Source of the DNA: Catajapyx aquilonaris
Lineage: Eukaryota
Assembly (NCBI GenBank): GCA_000934665.2
Contig: KZ538175.1
Location: 62,001 to 126,000, forward strand
DNA length: 64,000 nt
Reading direction: 5' to 3'
The notes below the pieces were generated by a model. It was not told the origin of the DNA. It made no database searches and was given only the letters and a program-made list of their open reading frames with translations. This document shows, in pieces, positions 18,929 to 62,720 of the stretch (position 1 is the stretch's first letter; each line of letters starts with the position of its first letter). The position numbers and the translations under genes were made by a program.

Positions 18929-18930
<2 letters not shown>

Positions 18931-19011: not shown

Positions 19012-19013
<2 letters not shown>

Positions 19014-30229: not shown

Positions 30230-31213
30230 GTGTTTCACTGTCTTATCCACAAATTATGCAGTTATCTTGAGTTTGCAACGTGGGAAATAAAAATCCAAAT
30301 AAAAATTTGACAAGAAATTCCATCTGACAAAAATCAGGTTAGCAAATCGATTTACAAAATAAAAACCAAATCCGATATTTATGGATACCCAGTTATCAGC
30401 CTATGTGCTGACTCCGTACCATTACAAAATATCACCCAATTTCATGTGATGAGGACATCTTCAATATTTCCTGGGGTAAATATGGCAGACACCCGTTGGC
30501 CAAGTCATTTTCATAACAGCACCCCTCAAAAAATCCTGGGCACGTCAGGGCTGATGAGTGACATCCGTACATTTTATCTAGCATAGGCCCTCAGAGGATT
30601 TCCCCCGAAAAAAAAATCATGCCGCCCTCAGGCCAAAGAGAGTTTGAGAACCTTGACAGTTATGCAAATCGCCAGCAAAAGGCTCCGCCGATGAGAATAA
30701 AATCAAACTGTGCGCTGTACGCGTGCCAAAAGCAAGGCCAAGTTGGAAATGTATTCACTTTTCGCTCTTTAAAAATCCCTCACATGGCCAAATGTCTGCA
30801 ACTTGACAAGTCAAGAGGTGTAGAGGGCTGTGAGAGAGGCAGCAGGGCGAGGTGAGGGGACATTTCAGCATTTTCAAACGATGTCGCCAGAAGTGAGAGC
30901 TCTATATGCACGTGACTATACTATAATGAAGAATTCAGGTGATAAGGAATATTCCTACATTACCTTTGACCCCAGAGCATTATGCATTTACCTATGTCGT
31001 CAGTGCCCAGGTGCCATCAGGTCAAGCATCAGGTACTCCAGGGATATATTATTGCACTTTTATTTGTCGTGTGTACATTTTTAGCAGAAAGTTAACGCCC
31101 TTCAGGTGCTGTTGCGACGTCAGTGACCTACACTTGTATACACGACAGTCATGATAAAAAGGCAGCTGCGTGATTACATTTGGGTAGGCAGCTTTACGTC
31201 GTAATACACTTAC

Positions 31214-31333
31214 CGGTTACATTTGGACAACTGCAGTTCATAGCAGGCATCTGAGCAAATTGGATCATTTGAACCGCTTTATCGGTTTGTCCCACACGCC
31301 TTGTTTGCAGTTGCCAAGAGTGTCATAACTCAC
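31214..31333 (-). other. Cryptic 120-nt RS-exon downstream of RS-A
   Basis: Ends at a consensus donor CCG|GTAAGT (GTAAGT = 31213-31208). Stop codons occur in all three frames. Confidence 0.55.
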
Positions 31334-31364
31334 CTGAAAATAAGAAAACAGCACATTACTAAAG
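31328..31364 (-). other. Candidate recursive splice site (ratchet point) RS-A
   Basis: Minus strand reads ctttagTAATgtgctgttttcttattttCAG|GTGAGT. 11 of the 12 nt before CAG are pyrimidines, a branch-like TAAT lies upstream, and a consensus donor follows directly. Junction is between 31334 and 31333. Confidence 0.7.
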
Positions 31365-34300: not shown

Positions 34301-36212
34301 AATTAATGCGTTACTCATGAAACATTCTCTGTTAATTATTGCATCTAGGGGTTGGACATCCGCTCCAAGTCAGTCGCCACCAGCCAATGGGCCCGAAATG
34401 CCTCCGTCCCCTTAATTTATTACGTATTACTTGAAATGTACTGAAGGTGCGTTATACCGACAATCAGATGCAAAATGAAAATATTTGTAATACACTGACT
34501 GTGAGATCAGTTAGCCTACTTCCCTTACACAAAAGTAATTAAAATAAACTTATCACAAAATAATATTTATCATCTGAAAAAACTTCAACTTACAATGCCA
34601 AGAGTTGGCATGAATTATTTAACAGCGTAATACTGTATACTGTATCGAATCAATGTTGCAAGTGTTTTCTGCAATCAAAGAGCCACAATGCAACTAACCG
34701 TTCAGGATAACATCCTCCAGCCATATTTCTTGTGCAAACCATTATAAGCAAAGCAACAACAACAAAAAAAGGCCTGAGAACCTTCCAGTTGAAAAATGCT
34801 AAACACAGGGAACCCCCGCATACTAACACTACTGTAGACGAAACCTGTCTGAAACAGAAAATACTGGCGATCCCCTTTACTTTCCGCCTAGGGCAGATTT
34901 GGCTGTATTTGAATTGCATTCAGCGCTATCCCAGTAAAGATCCCGCAAAGGAAACGAAACAGGTCGATCCCACGCACCAGTAGTTTTCTCAAAAAAAGGA
35001 ACCCAAAACAAAACAAAAAAATCCCGGCTAGCTCTCAGCAGGCCATTTCTGGTCGGCTGACAACATCTCTCGTTTTGCATGTATCTCCTCTGGCAGAGCA
35101 TGGATTTACCTTCCTTCCACTGGAAGTCTGGAACTGAAATCGAAGGTGGGCTCAGATGGTGAGAAGCGAAGTGGGATAAACACCCCTATCTTTCTTTTCT
35201 CTACGCATTACTGTCACTGCCAAACACCAAACGTGTCGGACCGAAGAGATTCGAGTCAATTCAAACCGCACTCTCGGAGTCTCGGTGTAGGGCTTTCAAA
35301 TGGCCACTTGAAATCCATCCATCGCCCTTCCAGCCTGCTTCCATTTCAAATCAGGCACCAGCAGAAAAATGTGTCGGGTCATAGTCCACGATTTTTCTTG
35401 CCTCCGAATATAAAGAGTGATCTACAACTCACTCAGGACGGACTTTTTTTTTCTGAAATTTCAGAGCCCGCTTTTTTAGGGGGTGGTTGAGGAGATGCTT
35501 TGAATAGGTGCTGTGAATATATCCAAACGGTTCGTGCTGCAGATGGTGATGATTCCATTGACTTTCTTCCACATCTTCGTAGTGCAAATGCATTTGCACC
35601 GATACAAATGCGATGTAAGCTTATACAGTGCTTTTGGTTTTGCCTGTTTTTTTTCTACTATAGATGACAGCATTCATCATACAAACACTAACGGTGCCAC
35701 TTTGAACGCTCCATAAGTATCAGTTACTATACAAGAGCCTACTCGACCCATTTTTATGTGTAGCTAACCTAACTCGTCGGATAAGTCGTAGCATAACAAT
35801 TATTAACATACGATTATTTCCGTTAATAGAGACGGATTGCCAAAATCAACTACAGCAAAAACGTCGGTCCTAGAGGATGTGTGCACATTTGGCACCGCCC
35901 TGTATATGCTAGTATGGGGGTATGCACTAGAGTCTTTGTTATCATGGACAATGCATACAGCAGTATCCCCCCAACAATATATCGCAAACATCCGTTCTGG
36001 TTGTCGTTTGGTAACAGTTTTCATAGCAGTCACTACCCGGCGTACTTAATATGCAGCGTATATTGGACGGTATCATTTCAGTGTTTTTCCCAAGTACCTT
36101 CTAAATCACAGCTTTAAAAACTACACTGGGCGAAGTGTTATGAACCACCAACCCTTCCCAAATGATAAAAATGATGCCTCGTATTTTTTTATACGAGATC
36201 CTATGCTGCAAA

Positions 36213-36449
36213 TATAGGGTGCTTCATGAGTATGAAACCTACTACACTTCCGATATTGTCCGTTTGAGAGAGTTATAAATTTGAGATTATTCTGCATGCC
36301 ACCCTTTTAAAATATGTAAATTAAATGCCGCTTTGAAGCGCTTTAACCCAAGATCCATAAAAATCTCAAAGTAAATTTAGGAGGCATAAAACAAGTCGTA
36401 ATAGTGTATTACACTTTAAAGAAACCAATTTGAATGACTTCACCTAATA
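36213..36449. mobile_element. Possible decayed Tc1/mariner-type MITE
   Basis: Left end tatagggtgcttcat versus right-end reverse complement tattaggtgaagtcat, resembling TA-CAGGGTG termini. AT-rich interior. Confidence 0.3.
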
Positions 36450-39054: not shown

Positions 39055-39216
39055 GGAAATGGCCTCCTCCCCCTTCTCCTCCTCCTCCGTCCTCTTTCCA
39101 CTTGGCGCCCAGGCCTCGAGTCTTTGCGCCATTTCCGCCACTTCCGCCATTTCCCGCCTCCTTGCTATTCCCGTTTAACAAGACTGGGGGTAATTGTGAT
39201 TGAGAATGGCCATTTC
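39055..39216. promoter_or_regulatory. Cluster of YY1/PHO-, ETS- and E2F-like motifs
   Basis: Four AAATGGC/GCCATTT words, tandem CGCCAYTTC x3 (39127-39153), ACTTCCG and TTTCCCGCC. Confidence 0.3.
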
Positions 39217-43273: not shown

Positions 43274-43439
43274 NNNNNNNNNNNNNNNNNNNNNNNNNNN
43301 NNNNNNNNNNNNNNNNNNNNNNNNNNNNNNNNNNNNNNNNNNNNNNNNNNNNNNNNNNNNNNNNNNNNNNNNNNNNNNNNNNNNNNNNNNNNNNNNNNNN
43401 NNNNNNNNNNNNNNNNNNNNNNNNNNNNNNNNNNNNNNN
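43274..43439. other. Assembly gap (166 N) between a poly-G and a poly-A tract
   Basis: Run of N characters. Confidence 0.99.
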
Positions 43440-46400
43440 AAAAAAAAAAAAAAAAACTAGGGCCAGCCTGCTTCATTAACTTTGAGATCGGGCAAAAACA
43501 TTCTCTTCCCCAGAAGGTTGGCTGGTTGGTTGGCTCGCTCTTCCACTTTGCTTGGAACCACGTCCGGTTCAGTTTGATGGATTGTTGCCCCGCTACTTGA
43601 TGTGCAAGTCTAACGCCGACTCTGCTCAAATCTGAGCCCCAGCTGTATTCCCAGCTAGGCGCCCGACTCAATCATGTCATTTAGGCTTTTTATTTCTGAC
43701 ATCCGGGGCCAACTTATAAAGGAGGGGGGGATATATCAGGGGGAGGCCTAAGATGTATTCGGAGTCTGGCCAGGGGAGAAGAGGTGGAAAATTGCTGGAG
43801 AAGATGGTCTTCTTGGGCATTGAACTCAAAGGAGGGCTGTATCAGCATTGAAAAGTGATAATAAAAATTTTAAAGAGTAATTTTAGTGTGCACTCTTGAA
43901 GAAAAGATGCGTCGTCTTGGCGCATATTCTGGTTGGGTTCTAAGGAACTTGTTGGACAGCTCATGATGGATCGTCTTCATCTTTTTTGGCTGCGATAGTA
44001 TGTTATGGACGACAGCTTTAGTGTAGCACATTTTGTGTCCGCGCCAACCAAGAAACGCTACCGTGTATATTCCGTCAGCTCTAGTGCAGTGTAGCTTATT
44101 ACGACACAAGTCCACCACATGTATTGCGCTATGACGATTTCACCGCTATTTTATCAAAAAACAAGTTGCACACATTTACAAAAAAAATAAGACATGAAAT
44201 CCTTAGTTTAACCAATATTGATAAATAAATGCGCGTGATAATACAGGGTGCATTATAATCTGCAGGTTTTGCGTAAATACACTTTTTTGCTATTATGTGT
44301 GTGGCAGGAATTTTGTGCAGAGCTGACCGTAGTGTTGTATGGTGCCTTCACACAACCACTTCTATTCACAAGCGAGTTTAGAAGCTCCGTTTTCCATGTG
44401 GCGAAGTAGCGTCTAAAACTCGCTTGTGAAAAGACAAGGCTGTGTAAACAGACGATGAGCAGAAACAGGCGAAAAAAAAAACAACCTGGGTCGAAGTTTT
44501 GATGAAAGTATGAGTTTACACTGGTATACACAACTTTTCGGTAGCTTAACTTCCAGTATAGCACTTGTCGCTTTACAACACAGCAAAGTCAATAATTCAT
44601 GCTTGGAATATGCTATCGTCTTCGCTGATCTTCAGAATATCTTACTGCCAGCATATTGCAAAAAAATATGATGACGACACAGACATATTATACTTTCATG
44701 CGTGTTAATTTTAATGTTATGGAAAAGTGGACATCAGAGTGTGATTTTGGCATGCATTGTTACCTACTACGGCAACTATTTCATAATAATTTCTGCAGTT
44801 ACACGTGACATGAGACTGGAAGCATGTCATACCACTTTCTTCTTCTAAGGAACTTTCTACGCCAAACCAAACCTGATCCAGATTTTCCCTACTCGGCTGT
44901 GAGAAAATGCCAATAAAAACAAACAAACAATAATTTGTCCGCAATATTTTCTCCATCTCACTTGTCAGTGTATGAAAAAAAAAAATGCGAACTGGTCTTC
45001 CACAGGCTACGTTTCATAATATGTCACCTACATGCTTTAAATTCGAGAAAATGACTACTGAACTGTCCATAACATTAGTCAAATACAGGTTCTATTGACA
45101 GAGTCTGGCTATTCTTGCCACGCCGCGCCACAACTTCCCAAGACGACAACCTATCTAACAAAAACTAAATATTTGTGAATCCCTAAAAAATGAGGCCCAG
45201 ACACCTAATCAAATATTTGGCACCGTTTTCTTTCAGACCTTCCCTGATGCCCCTCCTGTTTATAGACTAGGATCCTCTTCGAATTCCCTACTTCGCCCGT
45301 CGCCGCTACATCAAACGACGACAGATGTCGCGTTTCCAAACGTCTTGGGCGACACTACAGAATTAACCTCCTGAGCGAGTAGCGGTGTGTGCTCGAGACA
45401 GAAGCCAACCCTCTATGTTTATGAGGGGGTTTCCCCCTCTCATCCAGTAAAACAATTGTATTGTCTGCATCAAAGGACCGCTATATAAACGCCAGGGGTG
45501 TCCTCGCCCGGCAGACTCCTATACGGTTATAAATGCTCGTGCGATAGGAATAAAAATCTCATCATGGTGATGTGATCTGGAAATTGGGTGTTGTGTAAGG
45601 CAAATCCTCTCCCCACTCTCCCTCCTTCGTTCCATCCCTATTTGGCGACCCCCTCCAACTTCTTCATTCTCCCAGCTCCCAGAATCTAATTTCTGCTGGG
45701 GCCAAAGTGCTGATTCCCCCACCTCTCCTTCTCCCGAGAGAGACGTCTCTCGGCGCCATTAGCCTACACTCCCTGCCCCCTGCAAACATATTTGTGAAGA
45801 AGGTCCAATGTGTGTGATGCACGGGGTCACGTGGAGTTATTCCGGGCAGGTTAGAAATAAACTTGTTTCCAAGAATGACAATAGTAGAATTAATGCAATC
45901 AGGCAACGTTGCAAGTGACTTGGCTCGTGGAAATGCTGTTTTTATAGTGCATATAACAATTTTGGGTCAGATTGCTGCTACTGAAAGTGTTCCTGTTTTG
46001 AGTGATGGCGGCTTTCAACAGCTACCTGGCTACGAACCAGTTGTCAATAATATAAATATTAGTGCATGCTAAAATAAGCCGTTATCGACAACCAATAACG
46101 TTGCCACCCCATCATCTGAAACAGAGCATCTCTAATGTTGAGGCTGTAAGCTTTCCAGCGTAATTATTATACTAATCCTTGTGATCATGCTGTACTGGAT
46201 GTCTTCTAGGCAATCTTGTGCATTGGACAATTTCGAACAATACAATCAGTTTTCGTAAGTTCAGGAGTACTATATTTCCGTAATTACTTTAGGCAACGAG
46301 GAAGCAAAATCAGGTGGGTCTTCTCCGAAAGTCGATTGCAAAAGGCGCGGATGGGATATAGTATAAAACTTGCTGTATACAGAGCTTGCCATTTCCCCCT

Positions 46401-46714
46401 CCAAGTCATTGCACTGCTTTGTCGGGCACACGATACAAGTAAGGGTATCGATCGTATCGTTCATCGATTCTGGTACTACAAAGAGCTTCACTTGGGTGTG
46501 TAATAATGCAAGGGTAACATGCAACAACATTCCACGGATTTAGACAAATGCTTAACACGTACTCGTGTTTTAAGGGGGATATCGTTTGCACTTCATTTCC
46601 CCCTGTTTGTGCGAAAATGATGTTACCTTTGTTTCTACCACTCCGGAGTTGTAATTATTGCTTGGGATGCAGCACATTTATTTGCCTTTTCCAAGCCAGT
46701 TGTTTATATAATAA

Positions 46715-47003
46715 TTTGTACCCCGTGCTAGAGCCATGGGCCCTCTTAGGGGGGTGGGATACCACCATATTTTTTTATCTGGAACTCTTGCTTTCGTTTT
46801 TACTTCTCGTATATGGGGATGGGATGGGGACGGAAGGAAGCGGCTGTGGCCTATAATTACGGACACGACCCCGGAATTTTCCTGGTGAGACCATGGGAAA
46901 CCACAGAAAACCACGGTCAGGGTCGGCGGCCACCGGGATTCGAACCCAGTACCTCCCGATTAGCAGTCGGATACCATATCCCCTCCGCTACCACTGCTTC
47001 GGT
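46715..47003 (-). mobile_element. Full-length tRNA-derived SINE (~289 bp) with target-site duplication
   Basis: Flanked by a perfect 19-bp direct repeat ccagttgtttatataataa (46696-46714 and 47004-47022). The minus strand has an A-box-like TGGTAGCGGAGG and B-box GGTTCGAATCC. The body GTGGTTTTCTGTGGTTTCCC...CAGGAAAATTCCGGG...AGGCCACAGCCGCTTCCTTCC resembles, from memory, Talua-like arthropod SINEs. Confidence 0.9.
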
Positions 47004-48021
47004 CCAGTTGTTTATATAATAACATTATGTTTAGCTCTAATAGAATATTTAGTTCATTTCAAAAGTAACGTCTGCAATAATACATAAGGATTAAGATATA
47101 CCCTGGCTATACCAAACAGCTTCATTATTCGGTAACAACAATGTCTATATAGCGGCATTTCTACCAAAATGTGACTCCGATAGCTCTCCATATCGTACCT
47201 GAACTGACATGTCTGAAAACATGTCTGAAGACTTCCTGTAAGTTGACAAGACAATCACTATGCCCACCTCATTATTTTCGTTCTTTCCCTATACCGCGAG
47301 GAAATCTTTGACAGTGTGGAGAGATTTCATACAAGAGTGGCAATTGAAACTGTTTGCTATTTTATGTAATGAATATCACGTGAGTCTCATTTTAGCTCAT
47401 CAGAGCATGTATCCATATTATGATTACTGTGCAATGCATAGGTGGAAACCAGTAATGTTGTCTTGCGTGCAAAATTAGGTCTATGTACTGTACCTGACAT
47501 GTTTCTGCAGAAGAAATTATCAATACGTAACAGTTTTTAAATTATTTCTTTTGCTATTATAAGTAATAAACTATTTGGCCCCTTTCCTCACTGCATAATA
47601 CATGCTACATTTAACCACTGCATAATGCATATCTAGTGACATATTAGCAATCTTATGTAAATTTATGATGTACTCTACTTTTTCTTGCAATATTAATCGT
47701 CATGTTTGTCAAGCGTAGGCGTTGCTGTTTATATGAAAGAGCTGTTGCCAAGTATACGGAAGGCTGTCCATGTATGGCTGGTTAAGTAATTATTGATGCG
47801 GCATGCGTGTTAGTTTTGGGGATTTGGATGAGAACGTTCTCTTTTTTCAGAAGGCTCTTCACTGATAAATTAGAACCTTCACGATATGTGTTATGCAGAG
47901 TACAGACCCGGTAGGGCCTGTGCAATCGTCAAATGATGGTACTTTCTCTACCACTTTCCACGATAAAACACCCGATAAGGAAATGGTGTGACATTACTTT
48001 TCATCTAACACTTTATTAGCA

Positions 48022-48022
<1 letters not shown>

Positions 48023-48076
<54 letters not shown>
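48023..48076. repeat. (ATT)18 microsatellite
   Basis: Perfect trinucleotide run. Confidence 0.98.
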
Positions 48077-48077
<1 letters not shown>

Positions 48078-51000
48078 GTCTATTAATAGGGTAACATAAT
48101 GCTTCCGATAATTAAAAGTCTGTGTGTTCAGGTCCCAGTTCCCACCATCATGCATTCACGCAGGTGTAATTTGCCAACTATACCCTCAGGCGCGACAGAG
48201 CGTTCGTTTTTTTTTAAAATATATCATTCATTACTTGCTATTTATAAATAATCTTCCAACAGTTACAGATATTTCCTGCCAGCGGTGAATAATTTCGGCC
48301 CGTGTTGGCATAGTGCTTCATGGCCTCTATTATTGATGAACGTAGTGAGGTAATGAGAATTATACGTTCGATTACACAATCTATATACCGTGAAGTTGAT
48401 TTGGACATGCGTTCATAATATGCATTAGGTAGTCATCATAAAAAACGGCCATGGATAAAAACAGTACCCTGTGTGTATCAGTTTTTGTGGATTTCATTGC
48501 GCTGCCGTGTGAAGTCATAGGCTACAAATCTACCTGATGCTCAAAATTCACATTTTAAACAAATCAATGTCAAATTCTCAAATGGAAAGTATGGCAAAAC
48601 AGGTCTTTAAAATTCACTCAAGCTGACACGGTCAACACTAACGAAACTTTTCGCATAATCTTTGTGTGCGTTATACTCGCGTTTAAGGAACTTAGCGACA
48701 GCAAGTTACTCTTGCATGCAAATGTCATTAAAACCAAAGAATTTCAACATGAGAGGACTTGTAACCAGACCCAAATGATGCGAGCCTGGTTCTATTTTTA
48801 CATGCTGATCTTCCCGAGTGGAACGAAGTCTCGATCCTGATGCCTACGCATATAACTGGATGATCCCCAAGAAATGTCAGTTATGCTGTGAAAAGTGAAG
48901 TGCAAAACTCGTTGTGATGAGTTCCTGGAAGGAGCCGCCCCTTCCATTCCGAACGTCGTTCGAATGCCCCTGCTCGCACAAGTGACGCTCTTTGACATGT
49001 TTTTGCGACTGACTATATGGGCATACTTGACGAACTTTGTCTGTTGATGGGAGCACAAAGTTCGGAATCCTTCCTCGAGATACCAAGAGGACACGAGCAC
49101 CTAAAACTTCATTTCTGATCCTGTCCGTCAAAAGTTTCTCTAGACTACAGCCCACGACTTCCAAATGGGGTTGTTGACAAAGATATCTCTACTTGGGACT
49201 CTCCACGAGTTTGACAACCATGAAAATGTGCCTTTTGCAGCAAGCATTGTTGTCCACACAATGAAGCTAATACCCATACAGCGGCCATTTTTTTCCTACC
49301 ATTAGCTATTAATGCAGGGAGTCAAATTTAAAGGTGATATATGCAATACTGTAAACGTCTACGTGCTCATATATGGGGGGCTTATCCTATTAAGATATGT
49401 GTTTAGATAAGTAAAGTATTCCGGATCGTTGCCAAATCGTCCCAACGGAGCATGACAGATCGTATTGATCTTGCGTCTGGCAAATAATACGGTACTAACG
49501 GCGTTAAATTGCCATCATAATACCGATAGGGACCGAGCAGTTTTATCGGCTGGAATCATATCCTGGCAAGATATTGCTTGACAAATGTGTCAATCAATCA
49601 ATGGATAAACAGAATAGGAAAATGAATAAAAATTATTGCTATTTCAGTCGTAATATTATGCATCGACTATTCGCATCACAGGTTTAAAAAAACTAAGATC
49701 AATCTTATACGATAAGTGGGAGTTCGGGTTGTACTTTCTTACAGCTGTCAAAGTCGACATTTTTACGTATTAAATCATTCGCTGCTTGGGATAAATACTA
49801 TTCTGATATTTTCAATCAACAAGGTAATAGATTCGCTCTTAATGAACGGTACTCCACAGTATATAATAATTATTGTTAAATTACTTTCTGTTAATGCGTG
49901 TGTCCCTTTTCTCCAAAGGTACCCTATACGCTTCTTTTTAGTCACTAGTGACTTGCCCACTAGATATTATCATAACTCAACACCAAATGGTAAATATACG
50001 GCTTACAATCTTCGAAACACACTCGATGCTATTGTATTTCCCTCACACAACGTTTCTTATTTCCTTATTTCACATTTTCTTTCGACACTGCATTGGTTGC
50101 TTGGAATTCCCTTCGAGTAGAGAATCGATGCGCGTCGTTTTTTTATGCCACGTTCCGTTGACCAACTCAAAAAATACGCGAAGGTGCCCATCTTCTCCGC
50201 CACTTACCCTATGTGGAGGAGTCATCTCGACAAGCTTATAAGTGGATATATCCGAAAATACCTTGGTTTACTTTACTCGGCTGAAGAGGCAACTATCCGC
50301 TGTAAGGAAAGCACCGGATACATATGGCTTCCATCCACATTGACGGCAGGATGCTGATACACATCGGTATCCAAAATGGCGACGAGAGCCGTAGATGTGA
50401 CAGTGATTGCCCAAAGCTGCGAACAACTTTCCACGGCCGTCTATACAGGTTGACATATCAGTTCAAGAGGGGTATAACTAACTGCAGCAATTTCACAACG
50501 AGGACATACATTACTTTTGAAGGGGCGTCGCTCGGAGATATGGCCAATTGCTCAATCGAGGGGGACCACTTGTTGAGCAACGATTTAATTTGTCATCAGT
50601 AGCACTAATTAGGAGTTTCTGCCCTTCGCCCACTAATAGCTCCAAGCCTACACGTAACGCGATTTTAAGCTACCCTCTCCCCTTACCCAAGAGCCCTTCT
50701 TCAAGGCGCCATATTGCTTCTTCTGCAAATGCCTGCAGGTGCTTCAACAAATATTATCATATTTCTAACAGCTTATCCATCGTTTAAGATCTACTTACAG
50801 TATCTACAATGTTGAATCAATTTCAACAACCCTGTGTTCCAGTTTTGCTGCCTGAAACATTCGAGAGAAGGTTGAGGGTGACCTTCCAGGTTGCTGACCC
50901 TGGCACCAGAGGCTACACTATTCCAATGACAGGCGAGTGTATGCTGGCGCCATTTCTGCCATATTGGTGGTCAGTGTTAAGTAGGACGAAGGGCGGATTG

Positions 51001-51203
51001 GGTTCGTGTGCTTGAAGAGAGGTCCAAATCCACAGGGATCCATTCTAACAAAACAAAGGGCACTTTTCGTCAGCGCCAGCCGCTCTCTTGGGTGCTGTTT
51101 TTGTTGCCTCGTAGGACCCCACCAACCGTCCCCGAAGGGGGATAAAAATATTCCTCCATTAGGTCTGCCGTCTACCCCAACAACCTCAACCCCTCTCTCA
51201 CTC

Positions 51204-51231
51204 CTACTACCACCACTACTACTACTACTAC
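51204..51231. repeat. (CTA/CCA)n repeat
   Basis: ctactaccaccactactactactactac. Confidence 0.85.
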
Positions 51232-54200
51232 CTGCGGAATATTGCCCAGGCAGGGAGCCAATGTACAGGTCGTATAATACACACCAGGCCATAGCAGAGT
51301 CCTTTGCAACGCCTTCGCCCTCTTCACTCTCGCCCGAAAATAAGCAAAGATGAAATACGATATGTCGAAAAGGGGGAAGACAAAAACTAGGGGGGAGGGG
51401 ACAGATGGCAGGGGCAGAAGCAGCTCTTCAGGACCAAAAATATCGGCCCCTGGGAGGGGTAGAAATACGAGGATGGAGGTTGAAAAAGAGTGAGAGGGCG
51501 TTGAAAAATACTTTTATACTGGAAGGACCGGTGCGAAAGAATGGTATTAATGAACTCCAATTTGGTTTCTTTTTTTTCATATATTTTTCACTGACCATCG
51601 TTAAGAATGGTCAGATATAAAAGATGCCAGTGCTGGTGACATCTGAGACCACAACTGGTGACTAATGGATAAGGACATTTATTTATTGCAGTGTTTCTTC
51701 GCATGGGGTAAGTTATGGTCATCAGGATTTATTCCCAGTGTTCATGGTCCATTTTGTCCCACATCCGGATTTTTTTGAAAAGATACAGCCGCCTTATGGA
51801 ATGGTTCCAACAATAATAATTCGTACTATCAATGACTTATTTGAGGTCACGTTCAATAATTTCACGCACTAAGCCACCCTTCACATAGGGTGCTCATCAA
51901 GGCAGAAAGGTATACATTTTCCTGTATACGTATGTGTGATGGATAACTCATGGTGTTTACAAGTTACAGCACTTGCTTCCTAGCTTCTTTGAGGGATATA
52001 GCCTACTAGATAGATAAATATTTCTACTTATTTACCAGGCCGTGAATAATCCATCAGCTCCAGAGACCCGTTAATTCGAGCCTTCCTACATTTATTCATG
52101 GACACCCTGTGGCGTCAGTATACTCGGGAAAATTACACCCTACCAGCCAATAGTTCGTTCAGTAGGATCCTTACGTTCATGTTCTCCCACGGCGCCACCA
52201 ACCCAGTAAAAAAATATTTTTAAAAAAACTCACCCTGAGCAATAATCACCACAGTATCTCGAACTACTCGAATAGTAACCCGGGAATCGACGACAAGCCC
52301 ATAAAAACAACCACTCCCTACGCTTAATATTATAATTGGAAAACAAGGCGAGAGGTCTTTGGGTGACGGCCCCGTGACAAATGACAATCTTCACGGCACA
52401 GTCCACCGTCACGTCTCCCCAATCAAGACTAGGATAGAATTGGTCCCCCCAAAAAATACAATGAATATTAAAGAAGCTCGGTGTCCCAGTGTCTTCCCAT
52501 CACCGTGGGGGCTCTGGGGAGGCTCAAAAAAATTCCGGACCTGGCTCCACTGGTGACCACAAATAAAAAGGAAATGAAACCAGGCACGGCCTGCGTTGTG
52601 TGGAGTTTTAATCAGTGCCGGCATTGACACGGGGCTTGTCAACCCCGGCCTATAGTCTTGAGGTTCACGCCGCATTTATCTCCTGGAAAATACACCCCCA
52701 CACGCACCTTCCCCCCGCCCCCCTCAAAAAATGGTAGGGGAGAAGTTTCCCCCACTCTTCTTTGACCAAACACCGTTAAAGAAATTCTGGGCATGCCCCG
52801 CGCCACAATCCATATCGACCAATTTAATCTCGAGTTCAAACAGAGCTTATCAAGGNGGGGGGGGGGAGGGTCGTAGGAGTGACGACCTGAGGCGAACGTT
52901 CCTCAAATTCAGATCTTGTCAATCTCACTGCAAAAAGGAGAAAAAAAACTAGGGGGGGAAATCCTGCCTGTATTTGCTCTTCCAGATTCCAGCCTACCCA
53001 AATTCTCCTGGTCTGAAACCCAAAGACGTAAGCATTTTCATTCTTCCTATATATTTTTTTTTCCGAAATAAAACTTCCTAGAATTCTTCCGGCAAAGTAA
53101 TTTGACAGGTGAAACCATCACGTCCTCGGTCGGAATTTATGCTTTCGTTACAGAAGGTGGCGCGAGCAAAAGTGACAGTCTTCATATATTTACCACGTTC
53201 CACATATTGAGTGGCCATCTTTGTCGGGTCTGTTTCCCATCTCTTGTAGATGTAACCCTCCCTTTTATCTTTCTTAATGGGTAGGGCGGCAGTGTGGCCT
53301 GCATGACAAAAACAAGGCAGAAGACGAAGACGAAGAGAAAAAATGGAGGTTTCATCGTTCCGTGACTTTGCAGTCTGCATAATTTAGCTGGTTGACGCCT
53401 ATCAGCGCAATCTTCCTCTCTTGCTTCTGGTGGGTTATGTTCCACATGAGAGTGGGCAGGGATGGGCTGACGCGCAGATTTGCGATACTTATCGCTAGAT
53501 TTCTGTGTGTGTCTGTCTCGCAAGGGCTGGCTTTGGAGATGAGCCATCTTGCAGAGTAGAGCATGAAAATGGTGGGCAGTCCAACACCAACAGTGCTGAA
53601 ATACTGGGGATTATGACTCTCGACACTAGTACCGACACGTAACATTATCCACCAAGGTTAGCATGGGCGATATTATCCATGTAATTACCAGACTAAATGC
53701 GGAGTACCTACTTAAAACACACCCAAATGCAGTGGGCTTACGTTTCCGGGACAGCACTAGAGCTCTATCGCGTGGTGTATTCTGTAGGGTTCATGCGAAA
53801 AAGAAGACACATAATCATGTGTTTCAATATGCAAACGACACTTCCTGCTGAAACCATGTCCGATGCAGTGCTCCTAGCACAATAAGCACAAAGGCCACCG
53901 CACATTAAACGCATTACCTGCTGTACTTGCTTTGTGCATCATCTCGTATAAAGTGTACATTTTGTAACGGGCGACAGTATAGCCTGTATAATGTTGCAGA
54001 GGAATAATATTTTCCGGTCACATATATTGTCAATACCCTGCGTTCCTCCCAGACCTGCATTGAATTTTGGAAGCAAGATTCTCGTTAAAATCACTCCCGA
54101 GCTATGTCTCCGCAAAAACCAATGGAATTCGCTCGTAACAATATATTGGTCCCCATATTCTGTACCGTTCATATATAGGTTGCTTATTGATTTCCCCTCC

Positions 54201-57200
54201 AGCATCGCTACCGCTGATAATACATAGCGCTCGCATGCCCCCCAAAAAATTATCAGTATCTTACATAAACATTAGGTCACATAATCAAAAATGGGTTTCC
54301 TTTATTGTCGTTTCCGCAGCAGTAACAGGGTGCGCAATGATTTACATATTTTTCCTCCGCTAAGTAAATCTCTCCATTTAGTAGTAGACGGTGATTCTAA
54401 CTCTACTCCATTGTACTTTTCCTGGACCAACAAAACGTAGGGGGTTCCCTAATTGGCAGACTGGGAACGAATTCTACATCCCTTCGTAAACTTCCATCAA
54501 TTTTCCGAAAGCTTCTCGTACCACTTTGGAGTGGCAATCTGTCTCAGGCTGCCAATTAAGACGGATTGCTTTAAAAGGTGAGAAAAAGCAGGAGTTCAGT
54601 TGAAAAGATGCAGGCCACTTTGCTAGACTTCAGAACACCCAGACAAAGTTCGAGAGCCGCTTTATGTACAGTTCAATCCAAATAAATCAGGTTGATGATA
54701 TAGGCACTACTGTACAGTATAGTCTGCATGAGTGAACTCTGAAGCGGCAGCAGAGAAATTTTCAACCTACTTGAAATGCAATCCTCCTGCAATTCCAAAA
54801 AGGGGGAATCAGGGACTAAATATGATGATTGCAGGCGCAAATGAACGCAGGATAATTATACCGGAAAAGCGACTTTGGCCCTGTGACGGGTGCTTCGGAC
54901 GACACGTTATGAATCTGAATGTCTATTGCATTTTAATGCGAGAATCAGGAATGAACATGGCCACACGTCTCTTCCACTCCGTGTCACATCATTTACTATT
55001 CCAGAAATATTATTACGAACAATTTGGACCCCTCCTGCTCTTTCCGCCTGGTCCGATGCTGGCATAACACGTGCGATCCGGCAGTAAGCCAGTCGTAAGT
55101 GCAAATCTAGTGTGGTCATTACCCTTCCTCCGCTTCCGGGGCATTGACAGTCTCCCTTTTAGACAGCGAGAGGTCATCTTTCTCGAGACGAGAGCATTCC
55201 AAAGACCAACGTTTCCTGTAATTTGTCAAGAGGAAGGAAACCACTGAAAGGCATCGGCTTCAATGACAGTCTTACAACTTGAGCCATGTTGCCCTTTCCA
55301 ACCCGGACTCCCAAAGGAGGGAATTGCGCCATCATTCATTACCTTCATGCCGTATTCATATCAACATTTGTACAGTGCAAGGAAGCAGTCTGGTGCAGCA
55401 TTGGTTCAGTGAAGAGAAAAAAGGCGGAAAAATGGCTTCATATATATACTCCCTCCGTCGGTTTCCATCCTCGATATATCTTTACTACCGGAACCCAACT
55501 TGGTATTCTTTTCCAAAGTGTGCCCCAGAGACGACTTCCTAAGTTTGGCTTGTCATTCGTATAAGAGCGCTTTGGGACCTTTTCCCCTGCAAGTTTGAGA
55601 ATCCACGTGGCAATGGCACGTATATGATCTAACAACAAAAGAGATAGGGTGGCAAAATATTGGTAAAAAGTACGCTGTTCGCCAGCCGCATGTGTAAAAA
55701 CCGTGCTGATTGACGCTCACAAATTTAGGACCAAGCCAAAGCCCAACTTTTTGTTGCGAATAGAGAAATGCGGGTAAATGTTTGTATGGGACGGCAATAT
55801 CGGGCGGAGCTGTGCAAACGGTGCGAATATTGGTCCGAATCAGCTTCGTTCCGCGGTTTACCACCTCCCATCAACGATGGATACAATCACTGTCATGAAC
55901 GGGGCCCCACACATTGATTGCCCGATGTAGTGCCCGGAAACTGACCGTCAGGGTTATGTTTTGTACGTCCTCTCGATGACAACTTGGCTAGTCCATCGTC
56001 TCGCTTTCATACACTCTACCACCCTCCATACCTCTCATTGGTAAACATTCATTCTGATTATTCCATGTCGCACATTTTGCCTACTGTGGCTGCACACTAC
56101 ATTTCATGATTATGCATCGTATATTTTACCCGCCAACTATACATGCAGTAAGCTGAATGCGGTCAACCTGGCTTTGCACAAAAAAACATAGCACTGCTCA
56201 AAGTACGTCATCAGCAGGTGTGTAAAACAAGTCAAACTGCGCCTGTGAAACCCGGACTCGAACTTGATTAGTACAAAACTGTCAGGTGCAGCTTGCATTA
56301 GATCCCAATCAGAAAATCCAACTTTGGGCCTATGTACCGTGTGTTTCGTAATTAAGCTCACATCCGTATCGATAGAAATGTCACGTACGACCGCAAGGCC
56401 CCCCTCGGAGAGGGAGAAAAGGAAGAGACGTAAGGGGAAGTATACGCCTTCATTAAGTGATGGGGTCAATACCAGCACGAAAGATTCACTGGGTAATATT
56501 TCGCAATATAATTCAGTGCGTGACTTATATGACCACAGAGGGAATGGCTTTGTCCACTGAAATCTCGGCACATACACACGCGCTCTATGAATGTCTGGTA
56601 TACGTAAAGTTTTGGAACACGTCCCGACTGGACATTAGTCCGACCAGATCCGACTGTATAGTGGAAGGAACCATTCAGAGGCTTTTGCACCAACGCCATT
56701 TTCACTGCTGCTCTCGGAGATTCGGCGTTCCAGGCGTGCAAACGACATATCACAGCTGCCGTCACGTTTGAAGAATGGACTATGGAGCCCAATATTTATA
56801 GATGTAAAGACTATCCCACCGTTCCCAGCTTATAGGTCTCGAACGCTACACCAACTATATACCTTTAAAAACTGAATTTCACAATAATATCCGATTATTT
56901 GTTTATTTATTTATTATCATTATCATTGCGATCATTTTCATCTTGGTAATGCTACCGGCGATGATTGCTAGGTAGCGCTCTCCATATGATGAATAAAGCA
57001 AACACAGATTGTGCGGCACAACAGGCTATAGTTGTCGAATGGCCGGCTCCATCCCAAAGGGAAACGAGTGGAACGGGCGCATTGCAAAAATCAGCCACTT
57101 CTGTTTGTGAATTCCACATGACAAACATTGAGCCGATCAAACCCACTTCGACACAACGACTCAATGTGCTTGCTGTATGGGTTTGGAAGTGACAAATGGT

Positions 57201-60140
57201 CCCCCAGAACGTGTGCCAAGGATCCCCCTCTTGTTAATCCATCGCAGCAAGCGGTCCCTTTGCCAAGTGTCCTTTCTGTAATCAAGTCCATTACCATGCA
57301 GCACGCTTGACAGAATGTCAATATTGCTGCTCGTGTATAAGACCCGCTGGAGCACGCTGCTTCAACCTCAACGCGACACTTTTCACCAATAAAAACCTGC
57401 GATTTTACTTCAATGGGCACACACTATATTATTTACACTCTAACTGTAACATGCACATGAAAGTGAGGCTTGAATGAAGCGTAATCTCTCAATGATTTCA
57501 TTTTTTTGAATGGAGTAACTGCATAAATTTTCTGCTTCACCAAGTTGTGTAATATATTAGATATGCATTAACTTATACGCTGTTACACCACGGTATCGTG
57601 CATTTAATAACGAATGAGCCAACACACAACTCAGCCTGTTATTACACTTATTCCACATGATGGATTCTAGTTCTGGAACAAAACATAATTATAGCCCTAC
57701 CAACAATTACTTAAGTCTACAGCATGACTATGTCAGAGAGAGTGTAGAGAGAGAGAGAGAAAGAATAGTTTACGGTACATTTTCAAAAAAAAAAAAAAAA
57801 AGGTACCAGAGCGGCATCAATCTCGTGGCTAAGATCCACAGAATCACAGGCAGCCTTTCATGTTTTGTTTCCAGCTCTACCCTTGATCGGCTTATATTGA
57901 GCCTAATAATGGCCAGCAGTGATTAAAAACCGCCAGGAATTTTAAACCTGATGGTGTAAAAATACCTTCGGGTGTTGGCGTTTTTCATCAATGGACGACA
58001 GGTCACGTACTATTTCCAAAGGTGCACATCACCGCCCTTTTCATTTTTGCCTTACACTTACTCATTTCACGTAACTTTATGCGGCTGCCGTATGTTTTTT
58101 TTAAATGCAATGACGTTCCTATGAGCTGGTTGGGTCAACAATAGTGATATGCCTGTCTATATGTATACAAAATGTCATTGGGATTTCTCTCACCTGATCA
58201 GGTCTGAATGCACGATGACCTCATCATAATATCAACTTCCACGTGCATATTTTCTATGGTACTTCTGGTGATATTAAATACTGTGTTTAAAAAGGGCACG
58301 CTATTATTACTTTACCCTATATTTCTGCACACGTCATACCTCGCAGTGACCGCATGCGATGACAAATAAAGAGCAATTAGTGAATACCCTATTGGAGTCC
58401 CATCCTGAATTCCCTCACATACGCACCCTGATAAACGATTCAAACTTGTATGACACTGTATTCGGTAAGTCATGTTCCTGCTTGATTTTCTTTTGGATCA
58501 TACCAAATTCGTCAAACTCATGTTATCCTATACCCATAATTCAGAAACAAGTCCGGGAAAAAAGAGAAAATGTGGATGTGCATGATTACAGCTCACGACG
58601 AAGCCACAATTTGGGCTCATGCACTATGAAGTCACCGCCTTTGTCCTCGATATAGGCATCGCACCTTTTTGCAAATCGATTCAGGTATCTATACACAACG
58701 GGCGAAAGGGCAGATATGTCAAAGCCTTTACGGCTGGGTAATCTATATCAACTCATCTATTGGTTTTTGCATGCAGATTCCTCACCGCCCGAGGAATTTA
58801 ATACAACTTTTCACTTTTCTGAAGCGAAAGGCACGCACATAAATACACCAACGCTGTGATGTAAATTGCTGCAGAATCGACTTCCAAAGCGGGGCGGGCT
58901 ATAGATTTGCCTTCCGGGGATTAACACGTACATGTTAGCTGTAATAACTCACCGGATAATTTTAAAATGGGTCCATTAGAATTCCGGCCACGCCATTCGG
59001 AAACATTTACATGGGCTTCAAGCAATATTGTAATACCACATCGGATATCAAAATATGATGCTATTGATTTATGAATATGGGGATTCATATCAATGCTCGA
59101 ATGTGCTCTCTGCAGCCATACACCACTGGAGTGACGGCCTCAAAAATAACAACCTCCGGGATTTGGCTGGATGGGGAATACATACGAGAGCCAGAATTGG
59201 GCCTTGTTGTATACACGACTCCGTGGAAAGACTTCAGCATATAGATTCTCTCAATTGCATATATCCAAGCCATACTTCAAAAAGATACGCAACTTTGAAC
59301 CGCTCCACAAACACATTATTTTCGCTTCCCAAAAGGAAATCGGTAGGGGCGGCACACTTTGGGTTGCGGGTTGAAACGCTAACAACCCAAATGCGCAGGA
59401 AACTGTCAAAAACCCCACTCGTAACTTTAGCGAAAACCATCCAGACGAGTACCGTCGACACAATTAAACGCCGCGGCGCATAAAATCATGATGTCAATAT
59501 TGTGATTCTCCCGCTCTCGCTGGGAAGGGAACATTTTTCAACAGTCCTTTCCACCCTCGTTGTTTCCCCAACTACTCCCTGAAACAGTCCTTCCCAAAAG
59601 ACATCCCAACAAGCCAACTTCCCGGTGACGAGGAAGACACGTCCTTGGCAATTACCACACCCCACCTCTCAATCAACACTCTCCTCTCATTCTTTTTTCC
59701 AAAGCACTCCACACCCGCCATCTTGGCTTCTCCCCCAATCCCAATTACGTCCATTGCATCCCAGCTTTAGATCACCCTGGCACTGACACTGCTTCATGTA
59801 TTCAATTTATCGCCATAGCGGTCAGGCAAGTTTGCAATTTGCCACCGACATCATCATCTTCATCAGTCCCCACTTGTACCAAACTCTGTGTCCTCCAAAA
59901 TGTGTAGCGCGCACAAAGGGTTGTGTGTGTACACCTCATTACGTCCAAAGCGTCTCGCTCAGGTCAGTCACAGGTAAAGAGAGTCGTTTTCAACATGTAC
60001 GGTGTGTCCTACACCATATGAAACCATGTGATGTAGGAGCATTTTCATATTTAACTAATTATTCCAAATTTAAAACTTTATAGGTTTTATTTCATTGGCT
60101 GTCTCCTACGCTTTACTACCGCACTGCAGAAAGCATAGAA

Positions 60141-60502
60141 AAGGGCTTCCCAAACTTTTTTCGCCGCGTACCCCTTTTCAAATTTGTCAAGACAGTTTGT
60201 ACCCCCATTCTCATCCTACCATATAATACGTAGTAATTGTGAGCACTAATTACCAGTTAGTGTGATGGGTGTGCTTGCTTGCTTGCGCACAAGTGGTCAA
60301 TGTTTGGGACAAGTGACGTCAATTTGAGTCTCAAGTCGTTTTCCACAGTCGCACCNGGTTTGTTTTTCCCACATTTGTTTTTTTCCATTTCCCCCCACAA
60401 ATGTAGGGAGAACGGACGCCATTGCACGAAATCTTTCGCGTACCCCCAAAATTGTGTTCGCGTACCCCCAGGGGTACGCGTACCCCAGTTTGAAAACCGC
60501 TG
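60141..60502. mobile_element. Non-autonomous hAT (Charlie-like) MITE, ~360 bp
   Basis: Left end aAGGGCTTCCCAAACT and right end AGTTTGAAAACCGCTG form imperfect TIRs. Subterminal CGCGTACCCC motifs are repeated, including the near-palindrome cgcgtacccccaggggtacgcg. The left flank gcatagaa is echoed as ccatagaa 3 nt beyond the right end. Confidence 0.8.
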
Positions 60503-62615
60503 CGGCCATAGAAGTACCAAATCCATATATTCTGCATAGACACACCCCTTTAACAACGACTTGCGTGTACAGGCACACCTATATTCCTGACACTCATACA
60601 GTGTATTCCAGCAAAGCGTTTAGCACTATGTGACATACGATTTCAAGAACAAAGGGAATGTTTTTGCTACTGCACACCCTTTATAAATGACGTATTTCCA
60701 GATTTCCAACTCTCTAGCTATAACATGCTACAACCGAAAACCCGGCGGAATAAAGTGATATCCCGCATTACAACGTTTTGCTAATTTGATCATGAAGAAT
60801 ATGCCCTACATACGTACAAGTATTTTATTAGGCTATATACTCGTAGCATGGATTTTTATTTTTTTGTAGTAGCCTACAACACGAGGGAGGTATAGAGGGT
60901 GATGGCAGGGGACCTAGCCAGTAGCAGGCAGCTATTATAAGTTTTCCGCGAATGTAACTACTGTACTGCACACTTTATTCTCCCCAGCAGGCCTTAAAAG
61001 TTTGCTGCGAAGTATTTATATTCTCAATCACAACTTATCTAAATGCAAAATACATATCATATTCAAAATATTAGATGTGTTTGTTTCATTCATTAAGTAG
61101 AGCCTGTCGACTCAACTACGGGGACGAGAGAGACGTATTGTTTTGCTTTCTCAGGAGTCTGAACTCTGAATTCTTTCATTATCGGAAAATGAGATTGCAA
61201 TTTAAAACTTTTTAAATAATTACAACTAATCAAATCAGGGCGGTAGAGTTCTATTTCACAAGTTCTTCCCTTGTTCTTGGCTAATTATTACCGAGAAGCA
61301 GGTGTAGTTTCGATTCATCGACCAAAATCTGCACAAATCAAGAAATCTCAAGCTGCTTACTCCGTAGTTTCAAATAATACCACTGTAAAACAGGGTGCCG
61401 GTAGATATGATACCACAGGTGTAGGACACCATACTGACTGAGTAGCACACTCCTCTGGAATTTGTCATAAAAATTACTGCTGAGGCTTTACAACCCTCCA
61501 AAGTTTGAGCAAAAGAGTTCTAAATAACGACGTTGTTAAGTGTGATTTGTCCAATGCGACATTCAAAAAGACTGATAAAAGCCTCATTGATCCTCTGGCA
61601 CATAATTACGTAGTAGTAGTATGCCCTATTCGTACGAATAATGTAGATCATAATGTTTAGTATGCCACTCGCTTAGTGCAAATTAAAAGACAGTAAAAGA
61701 GAAAGCAATAAACCCCAGGGATTTAGAACGTTTCGATTTGAATGTCATGGCGGCATGATTATGGCAAGTTTCAAATCGCTGTTAATTACTGGTTTTTAAA
61801 AATGGCTTTTAATTTGTACTAAACTAGTAGCGCTGAACATTCTGATCTGCATTATTCGCACGAGTAAAGCATACTCATATACTATATGTCAAACAGTCAA
61901 ATTGGCCAGTGAGCATTTTCAGTCTTTACTGGTCCATCGATAAATCACTGCTTACTAAAGTCGCTATTCAGAAGTTTTTCTCCAAACTTTCAAGGATTGA
62001 AGGATCTCAGGAGTCATTTTTACGACAAAATTACCGGAGGACTTTTAATTCAGGATGGTGTTCTTCAGTACCTGTGGTATCACGCTGGTATCATATTTTC
62101 CACATACCGTACCCTGTCATGACTCCATTAGTTTGAATGTATCCTATATGGACCTGCAGATTCCCTTTTGAGTAAACATTTCTACGCCGCGTAGTTACGG
62201 GATTTTGACCGGATGTAATCATAAACATTTATCAAGACACCAAATATGGTCCGTTGATAACATGGTTGAGATATACCCTACAGTATACAGTGTGGTATCC
62301 CATATTTTAAACCATAACTTACCTGTATGTATCTTGTCCTCTCGCCATCAATATTCCCCAATATAACTAGTTCAAAGCAATCAATTAGCTGCACACTATA
62401 AACTGCTTGATTAATTGATCAACACTACGATTGACCATGTACTAAAATGAGAGGTTACCTATAAAACAGCATCAAGATAACCACGTTACATTTTGATGCC
62501 GCTGTAAAATAACTTCCAGTTGTGACCATCCACAACTCTACGTGCACAGTCCCACCTGATCTGTTGTCCTGCAACTACAGGCGTCCTACAAGCCAGCGAC
62601 AAAGCAGTAACATAC

Positions 62616-62681
62616 CACCAGTACCATTTATCTGAGTCAGCTGCCACTCTATCTATCAATGGAGGCGCCCATGATCCTTAC
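62616..62681 (-). other. Cryptic 66-nt RS-exon downstream of RS-B
   Basis: Ends at GTG|GTATGT (GTATGT = 62615-62610). Stop codons occur in all three frames. Confidence 0.45.
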
Positions 62682-62720
62682 CTGCAAAGGAATAAGAAGG
62701 TCCCATTAACATGTATAAAT
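62676..62720 (-). other. Candidate recursive splice site (ratchet point) RS-B
   Basis: Minus strand reads atttatacatgtTAATgggaccttcttattcctttgCAG|GTAAGG. The tract is 14/15 pyrimidine, a branch-like TTAAT lies about 25 nt upstream, and there is no other AG for over 40 nt upstream. Junction is between 62682 and 62681. Confidence 0.7.

Follow-up and report, generated by a model that had tools for sequence, protein, structure and literature searches.

Two co-oriented candidate recursive-splicing cassettes 31 kb apart on the minus strand of a 64-kb genomic window

At two sites on the minus strand of the 64-kb stretch of DNA analyzed here (the window), a strong acceptor motif runs directly into a donor motif. 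We consider it probable, at roughly 60%, that a long transcription unit on this strand uses them as recursive-splicing cassettes. Our analysis establishes the architecture of the two sites and their statistical exceptionality; as splicing elements, they should be taken as a well-supported prediction and not as a discovery. An earlier, sequence-only reading of the same DNA had proposed a recursive-splicing system within a giant intron of an invertebrate. All sequence-level tests agreed with its two co-oriented cassettes; the giant intron and the invertebrate host are presumed.

Results

Two minus-strand sites share a fused acceptor-donor architecture

The sequence-only reading had placed two sites 31,348 nt apart on the minus strand, and both were found where it had put them (62682 − 31334). 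Its description of a TAAT, a pyrimidine tract, CAG/GTRAG, and a downstream donor was likewise recovered from the sequence at both sites. The corresponding features are as follows.

31328 to 31358, minus strand: candidate ratchet point 1, comprising TAAT, the pyrimidine tract TGTTTTCTTATTTT, CAG (G = 31334), and the donor GTGAGT (31333-31328)
62676 to 62708, minus strand: candidate ratchet point 2, comprising TAAT, a pyrimidine tract, CAG (G = 62682), and the donor GTAAGG (62681-62676)
31334 to 62681, minus strand: proposed one-step intron segment, which begins with the donor (62681) and ends with the acceptor AG (31334); assembled length 31,348 nt

Read on the minus strand, site 1 is TGTTTTCTTATTTTCAG/GTGAGT and site 2 is CTTCTTATTCCTTTGCAG/GTAAGG, with the last base of the AG at 31334 and 62682, respectively. 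Both sites carry TT at positions −5/−6, a feature present at 605 of the 7265 AG sites of the window. The putative branch point adenosines of the TAAT motifs lie at −23 in site 1 (31356) and at −25 in site 2 (62706); by chance, a TAAT with its A between −36 and −21 accompanies 614 of 7265 AG sites (8.5%). Pyrimidines occupy 15 and 14 of the 20 upstream positions at sites 1 and 2. The proposed segment between the sites contains a scaffold gap of 166 N (43274-43439), and its true step length is therefore only approximate.

We ranked all AGGT sites by a joint acceptor-plus-donor score, calculated with position weight matrices that hold generic metazoan frequencies and are not trained on the host species. 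Site 1 (11.8 bits) and site 2 (11.4 bits) took ranks 1 and 2 among the 397 AGGT sites of both strands. The third-ranked AGGT reached 4.7 bits, and the 397 sites had a mean of −8.2 and a standard deviation of 5.4. In joint motif strength, both sites are thus outliers and are unlike ordinary chance AGGTs. No further strong joint site appeared in this ranking in the ~31 kb between site 1 and coordinate 1.

Strong donors lie downstream of both sites

Each site is followed by at least one donor that would close a short candidate exon.

31333 to 31214 (120 nt), minus strand: candidate cryptic RS-exon 1, with the donor CCG/GTAAGT (GTAAGT at 31213-31208), 6.8 bits
last base 62616, minus strand: candidate RS-exon 2, +66 version, with the donor GTG/GTATGT, 3.2 bits
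last base 62556, minus strand: candidate RS-exon 2, +126 version, with the donor CAG/GTGGGA, 4.5 bits
62681 to 62323, minus strand: candidate RS-exon 2, +359 version, with the donor CAG/GTAAGT, 8.8 bits

Stop codons interrupt all three frames in every candidate exon, the 120-nt one as well as the three versions at site 2. Among the 3824 minus-strand GT donors, the top four are the two ratchet points and the donors at +359 of site 2 and +120 of site 1. The best of all is the copy at 62323 (8.8 bits), 359 nt downstream of site 2, and the +120 donor of site 1 (6.8 bits) is fourth. A donor of at least 5.5 bits follows within 20-500 nt at both ratchet points, as against 4 of 65 other strong acceptors; by hand arithmetic, the chance that both sites have such a donor is (6/67)(5/66) = 0.007.

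Ratchet and RS-exon donors were compared on their intronic halves; the exonic half of a regenerated donor depends on the upstream exon. At site 1, the ratchet donor scored 4.6 bits and the downstream donor 5.1 bits. At site 2, a ratchet donor of 4.0 bits faced values of 2.4 (+66), 0.8 (+126), and 5.1 bits (+359). Taken in full, the +359 donor exceeds any score that the ratchet donor could attain, whereas those at +66 and +126 fall below it. The rule known from flies, by which the ratchet donor outranks the RS-exon donor, does not clearly hold at these sites.

The same donors bear on an alternative that we judge unlikely, namely that the stretches 62681-62323 and 31333-31214 are ordinary internal exons of a minus-strand noncoding or 5'-UTR transcript that is spliced conventionally. 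The donor at 62322 would then be joined to the acceptor at 31334 across a plain 31-kb intron, and the GTRAG at the exon starts would either never act as a donor or be repressed, as in the annotated RS-exons of vertebrates. Both units indeed pair a strong acceptor with a strong downstream donor (7.5 and 8.8 bits at site 2, 7.2 and 6.8 bits at site 1), and stops in all frames are compatible with UTR or lncRNA exons. The downstream donors are at least as strong as the regenerated ones, a situation in which donor competition favors inclusion (PMC8605326, cited here from part of its text), and hundreds of annotated RS-exons have a repressed recursive donor (PMC6224609, in part). Against this explanation, a good GTRAG at an exon start is a rare accident; under the convolution null, the joint score is reached by chance at 1.3e-4 per AGGT. 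Two of two exons starting with GTRAG would be unexpected unless the juxtaposition were selected.

Motif strength and co-occurrence exceed chance expectation

We built a null distribution for the joint score out of the AG and GT contexts that occur in the window itself. Sites of at least 11.4 bits were expected 0.050 times, and the probability of two or more was 1.2e-3. The null was well calibrated lower down, where 3.5 sites of at least 4.7 bits were expected and 3 were observed.

The motif CAGGTRAG was also counted directly. The sequence-only reading had listed three copies besides the two sites; we counted four, at 3011 (+), 63138 (+), 58194 (−), and 62323 (−), the last of which it had overlooked. 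Its observation that the other copies have no tract held, since the other four copies have fewer than 14 pyrimidines in the upstream 20 positions. A tract of at least 14/20 was thus present in two of six copies, solely the two claimed sites, and in neither of the two plus-strand copies. In Markov simulations (300 each), the expected number of tract-bearing CAGGTRAG copies on the minus strand was 0.06-0.08, and at least two such copies on either strand had a probability of 0.3% in the order-1 and 1.7% in the order-3 simulations.

These figures make it improbable that the sites are chance splice-like juxtapositions in untranscribed or irrelevant DNA, singled out by a reader who was seeking them. 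Several observations do lean that way: the Markov simulations yield 1.1-1.7 bare 8-mers on each strand, about 4% of YAGGTR sites (4 of 103) carry a tract by chance, and strong acceptor-donor pairs within 500 nt occur near the chance level, with 3.4 (+) and 2.4 (−) expected by hand estimate and 4 and 2 found. Moreover, rare coincidences turn up when many windows are scanned. A chance origin would nevertheless have to account for two joint scores of this strength, for a TAAT branch at both sites (8.5% each), for one of the few strong donors shortly downstream of each (~0.007), and for the location of both sites on the strand favored by the compositional skew described below. If these features are treated as approximately independent, multiplication gives a joint chance of ~1e-6 to 1e-5 for one window.

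We regard as very improbable another explanation, in which the sites are not relay points of one intron but donors of first exons transcribed from alternative or divergent promoters, or dual-use 5'/3' splice sites whose role depends on the isoform: a dual-specificity CAG/GURAG class of splice sites exists, the best plus-strand donor (CAG/GTAAGG, 63138) lies 456 nt from site 2, faces the other way, and could suggest divergent transcription starting between them, and a GC-rich box is found ~110 nt upstream of site 2, but the composition of the interval 62700-63200 (GC 0.42-0.47) resembles neither a CpG island nor a promoter, a divergent partner is absent at site 1, a first-exon donor needs neither branch, tract, nor TT at −5/−6, and an accidental acceptor score of at least 7 at both sites is unlikely because just 25 of 7262 AG sites score so. 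A divergent promoter upstream of site 2 was rejected for want of compositional support. A plus-strand exon candidate (62996-63138) was also rejected; pairs of this kind arise about as often as chance predicts, and its frame 1 is interrupted by stops.

Coding content, composition, and repeats of the window

The absence of any recognizable exon in 64 kb, as noted in the sequence-only reading, was confirmed insofar as Pfam searches of ORFs of at least 80 aa and a period-3 scan detected no coding exon. None of the 30 ORFs of at least 120 aa and none of the 127 ORFs of 80-119 aa in the window matched Pfam above the cut-off. The sole subthreshold match among these 157 ORFs was a low-complexity one to Vir1p, which reached 14.1 bits (cut-off, 29.5) and fell within the TAA repeat, and the longest ORF (199 aa, 3362-3961, minus strand) looked random. 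The period-3 scan of the window gave nothing above the shuffle maxima except microsatellites. The ORF searches covered frames of at least 80 aa on either side of the 166-N gap, and short exons may have escaped them. A gene desert would give identical Pfam and period-3 outcomes.

On the plus strand, C exceeded G in 32 of 32 2-kb bins; the minus strand accordingly has an excess of G over C of ~0.07, along with an excess of T over A of ~0.01. In human genes, the non-template strand is skewed in this direction (PMC10030826, in part), and the direction of the skew fits minus-strand transcription of the window. This argument is extrapolated from human, and replication could produce an equal skew. 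Two further asymmetries were weak: AATAAA occurred 50 times on the plus and 38 times on the minus strand, and GTRAGT 13 and 25 times, respectively, the latter counts including the four sites in question.

The CpG observed/expected ratio was 0.78. It is the one feature that argues against a vertebrate, and the invertebrate host is presumed. The genome has a tRNA-like SINE in very high copy number, the body of which may be similar to that of hemimetabolous-insect SINEs.

At site 2, the DNA is single-copy, with a read depth of ~30. The sequencing runs comprised four DNA runs from a single study, perhaps the one behind the assembly, and the additional run X5. Over 44001-64000, run X1 showed single-copy depth outside repeats, and run X5 covered just the two repeats; X5 also shared almost no sequence words with the region of site 1. 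The depth of either run on this interval is uninformative on expression, either way. A shared repeat origin of the two sites was rejected: blastn revealed no copy relation between them, and no repeat families were detected.

Discussion

Proposed mechanism

We infer that the minus strand is transcribed, that both sites are used, and that splicing proceeds in the order given here. In each cassette, a TAAT branch, a U-rich tract, and UUNCAG would make up a strong acceptor that leads directly into a GURAG donor, and with the second donor after it, the spliceosome could recognize a short cryptic exon full of stops. In a first step, an upstream exon located beyond coordinate 64000 would be joined at the AG at 62682, regenerating the donor exon/GUAAGG. 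This donor would then be spliced to the AG at 31334, which would presumably remove the 31,348-nt segment, ~31 kb, as a single lariat and create exon/GUGAGU. In a third step, exon/GUGAGU would be spliced on to a site below 31208 or outside the window. Should the downstream donor beat the regenerated one, a noncoding (poison or UTR) exon would be included instead, of 120 nt at site 1 and of 66-359 nt at site 2.

A broader proposition is that fly-style zero-nucleotide ratchet points act in a SINE-rich, non-drosophilid invertebrate, in an intron of >64 kb and in steps of ~31 kb or more. By fly-style, we mean a grammar of UU at −5/−6 and a TAAT branch placed ~24 nt upstream, together with a cryptic exon that is full of stops. 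We hold this proposition tentatively, at a little short of even odds.

Comparison with known systems

Recursive splicing has been experimentally documented in Drosophila, mouse, and human (2026 review, PMC13149111, in part), and among open-access full texts we found no genome-wide study of it in other invertebrates. A clean pair of sites in an unrelated large genome would offer a concrete case that can be tested cheaply by RT-PCR and total RNA-seq, and it would address how general the site grammar of flies and their use of cryptic exons are. If the broader proposition above is true, the mechanism known from flies would be an ancient and widespread answer to giant introns and not a dipteran specialty, and animals with large genomes could be compared in their rules of donor competition and in their step sizes.

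The closest parallel is found in Drosophila, for which Hatton (1998) and Burnette (2005) are cited in the literature as earlier accounts of ratchet points. TT is present at −5/−6 in 196 of 197 fly ratchet points, branch points lie at −36 to −21, and recursive segments span 2.6-63.6 kb (Duff et al. 2014/2015, bioRxiv 10.1101/006163). Recursive sites occur in 63-70% of fly introns >40 kb, with a typical segment of 9-15 kb (Pai et al. 2018, PMC6110457, in part). The exon-definition model of recursive splicing needs a downstream donor (PMC8605326 and PMC6110457, in part); the cryptic RS-exons of flies measure ~50 nt and are out of frame or contain stops, and the ratchet-point donor is generally stronger than the RS-exon donor (Joseph/Lai group, PMC8605326, in part). 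A further fly criterion calls for an intron of >11 kb with the site in sense orientation; bearing on it are the 64 kb in which no coding exon was detected and a skew that would fit a minus-strand sense orientation. Beyond the motifs, recursive splicing is defined by transcription through a single intron, junction reads from exon to ratchet point, saw-tooth coverage, lariats, and an AG/GT strongly conserved relative to its flanks.

Like the fly ratchet points, our candidates fuse acceptor and donor at AG/GT with donors of the GTAAG/GTGAG type, and they have a prominent U-rich tract, TT at −5/−6, and a candidate branch A 21-36 nt upstream. At both sites, a downstream donor bounds a candidate cryptic exon that contains stops. 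As in flies, there are multiple co-oriented candidate sites tens of kilobases apart in exon-free sequence, and the proposed 31-kb step falls inside the range of fly segments. The candidates differ from the fly system in a proposed step of ~31 kb that exceeds the typical 9-15 kb, in candidate cryptic exons of 120 nt and 66-359 nt as opposed to ~50 nt, and in ratchet donors that show no clear advantage in strength over the donors downstream. Their tracts also look less pyrimidine-pure when compared by eye with the first 47 rows of Table S1 of Pai et al.

Vertebrate RS-exons are exon-defined through a downstream 5' splice site and contain premature stops (Sibley et al. 2015, Blazquez et al. 2018; PMC8605326 and PMC6224609, in part), and whether they are included depends on which of two competing donors prevails, the regenerated one or the one downstream (same sources, in part). 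The strong downstream donors in the window would suit this exon-defined, donor-competition type. The start of our cassettes would likewise regenerate a 5' splice site, and stops lie inside the candidate exons. Unlike the hosts of vertebrate RS-exons, the genome studied here has a CpG observed/expected ratio that speaks against a vertebrate.

A third comparison is provided by locust NPF1, where a recursive site has been predicted in the 230-kb intron 2 and U2AF65 RNA immunoprecipitation gives partial support (PMC8892266, in part). The locust site differs from our pair, a prediction from sequence, in this biochemical support. The two systems nevertheless resemble each other, both being motif-predicted RS sites of the Drosophila type in a non-dipteran invertebrate and in a giant intron, host and intron being presumed in the present case.

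Two tract-bearing AG|GT sites on the minus strand

The sequence-only reading had proposed two minus-strand ratchet points (recursive splice sites, in which an acceptor is fused to a donor at AG|GT), each with a pyrimidine tract and a downstream donor. Both were found where that reading had placed them, separated by 31,348 nt in the assembly. This spacing is an approximate assembly estimate, because a 166-N scaffold gap (43274–43439) lies between the sites. Isolated single Ns occur at 10621, 18516, 52856, and 60356.

31334, minus strand: AG end of site 1, ...TTTAGTAATGTGCTGTTTTCTTATTTTCAG|GTGAGTTATG...
62682, minus strand: AG end of site 2, ...TGTTAATGGGACCTTCTTATTCCTTTGCAG|GTAAGGATCA...

The window contains six copies of CAGGTRAG (plus strand, 3011 and 63138; minus strand, 62682, 62323, 58194, and 31334), among which only sites 1 and 2 are preceded by at least 14 pyrimidines in 20 nt. 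The three other copies listed previously are present, and a fourth, at 62323 on the minus strand, had been overlooked. When the window was simulated as a Markov sequence (300 runs each at orders 1 and 3), 0.06–0.08 tract-bearing copies were expected on the minus strand, and two or more on either strand had a probability of 0.3% (order 1) or 1.7% (order 3).

All 397 AGGT occurrences on both strands were then given a joint score, the sum of an acceptor position-weight matrix (−20 to −3) and a donor matrix (+3 to +6), whose weights are generic metazoan frequencies, not trained on this species, and serve only to rank the sites. Site 1 scored 11.8 bits and site 2 11.4 bits, with the third-ranked AGGT at 4.7 (mean −8.2, S.D. 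5.4). Convolution of the score distributions of the window's own 7262 AG and 7166 GT contexts gave an expectation of 0.050 sites at or above 11.4 bits among the 397, and a probability of 1.2 × 10⁻³ for two or more. The same null predicts 3.5 sites at or above 4.7 bits and three were seen, indicating a well calibrated background. These data confirmed the earlier observation and showed that two such sites are unusual for the window.

Both sites carry TT at −5/−6, which is found at 605 of 7265 AG sites in the window, and at 196 of 197 fly ratchet points versus 44% of ordinary fly introns (Duff et al., bioRxiv 10.1101/006163). The second A of a TAAT lies at −23 in site 1 and −25 in site 2, an arrangement that occurs by chance at 614 of 7265 AG sites (8.5%); these adenines are candidate branch points, falling between −36 and −21, where recursive branch points have been mapped in flies (Duff et al.). 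We found no homology of site 1 to site 2, or of either to the rest of the window, and DNA read depth places site 2 within single-copy DNA.

Downstream donors and candidate cryptic exons

The four top donor scores among the 3824 minus-strand GTs belong to the two sites and to one donor after each, a ranking that we judged the most telling feature.

Top-ranked minus-strand donors (rank; position; description; score)
1; 62322, minus; CAG|GTAAGT, 359 nt after site 2; 8.8
2; 31333, minus; site 1 itself; 8.3
3; 62681, minus; site 2 itself; 7.7
4; 31213, minus; CCG|GTAAGT, 120 nt after site 1; 6.8

Weaker additional donors follow site 2 at +66 and +126. Both candidate sites have a donor scoring 5.5 bits or more within 20–500 nt, compared with 4 of 65 other strong acceptors (~0.007 by hand arithmetic). 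Each candidate cryptic exon contains stops in all three frames.

On the plus strand, the top donor (CAG|GTAAGG, 63138) follows an acceptor by 143 nt (62996–63138) and lies 456 nt from site 2, directed away from it. Plus-strand pairs of this type number four, the chance level; 62996–63138 has stops in frame 1, and one other frame was marked open by the scan.

Coding content, repeats, and strand skew

In agreement with the absence of a recognizable exon noted from sequence, no coding sequence was detected. None of 30 ORFs of at least 120 amino acids and none of 127 ORFs of 80–119 amino acids reached the Pfam cut-off, and only two trinucleotide repeats exceeded the shuffle maxima in a period-3 scan. 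These perfect repeats, (TAA)n at 18930–19012 (27.7 copies) and (TAT)n at 48022–48077 (18.7 copies), are mutual reverse complements and together account for the window's only long inverted repeat.

A tRNA-Ser(GCT)-like element (46715–47007, minus strand; Rfam tRNA 31.1 bits, ARAGORN) runs into a body of ~290 nt in the same orientation as the proposed transcript. Identical 15-nt direct repeats border it on both sides (47008–47022 and 46700–46714) and resemble a target-site duplication left by a recently inserted SINE. Summed DNA-contig depth in its bin was 108,479 versus ~28 in neighbors, which is not a copy number and indicates a very abundant family. A second repeat (~60145–60430), with several contig joints and loose ends, is moderately abundant (1,361 versus ~28). 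Outside these repeats, DNA reads gave even single-copy depth over 44001–64000; a run of unstated kind covers the two repeats alone, and neither is informative on expression.

GC content is 0.435, and the CpG observed/expected ratio of 0.78 argues against a vertebrate. On the plus strand C exceeds G in all 32 2-kb bins (mean ~−0.07), with no switch along 1–64000, so that on the minus strand G exceeds C by ~0.07; T exceeds A there by ~0.01. The non-template strands of human genes are reported to be skewed in this direction (PMC10030826). Extrapolated from human, the skew fits minus-strand transcription of the entire window, although replication could also cause it; its uniformity fits a single direction of transcription or replication over the full 64 kb. 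AATAAA (50 plus, 38 minus) and GTRAGT (13 plus, 25 minus) lean weakly the same way.

Proposed mechanism and alternatives

The best reading, with a probability of roughly 0.6, is that the sites are two recursive-splicing cassettes of one long minus-strand transcription unit. An upstream exon would be ligated at AG 62682, restoring a GUAAGG donor whose splicing to AG 31334 would remove ~31 kb; the GUGAGU donor regenerated there would permit splicing further on. The downstream donors may act in exon definition by analogy with flies and vertebrates, where this role has been demonstrated (PMC8605326 and PMC6110457); alternatively, their use could include a stop-filled exon of 120 or 66–359 nt. The prior for giant introns is not small; 63–70% of fly introns longer than 40 kb carry recursive sites (PMC6110457).

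Ordinary UTR or long noncoding RNA exons whose initial GTRAG goes unused are an unlikely explanation. Pure chance is less likely still: the roughly independent features multiply by hand to the order of 10⁻⁶ to 10⁻⁵ per window, and we assign chance a higher probability than this to allow for model error and for the many windows read. Promoter-proximal or dual-use splice sites are very improbable, as the composition upstream of site 2, up to the plus-strand pair, is not promoter-like.

Comparison with known recursive splicing

Compared with the fly type, in which the ratchet donor is generally stronger than the downstream donor, the donors of sites 1 and 2 are not clearly so. The candidate exons (120 nt; 66–359 nt) are longer than fly cryptic exons of ~50 nt (PMC8605326), and the step of ~31 kb is longer than the usual 9–15 kb (PMC6110457) yet inside the 2.6–63.6-kb range of fly segments (Duff et al.). 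The tracts are also less pure than many fly motifs, as judged by eye from the first 47 rows of Table S1 of Pai et al. (PMC6110457). In donor balance, exon length, step, and tract purity, the candidates resemble the vertebrate RS-exon type more than the fly type.

A review describes recursive splicing as established in Drosophila, mouse, and human (PMC13149111). A 230-kb locust intron has a motif-predicted recursive site with U2AF65 RNA-immunoprecipitation support (PMC8892266), and the open-access literature searched yielded no genome-wide survey of other invertebrates. The candidate pair would thus add a predicted case to an already known class of recursive splicing.
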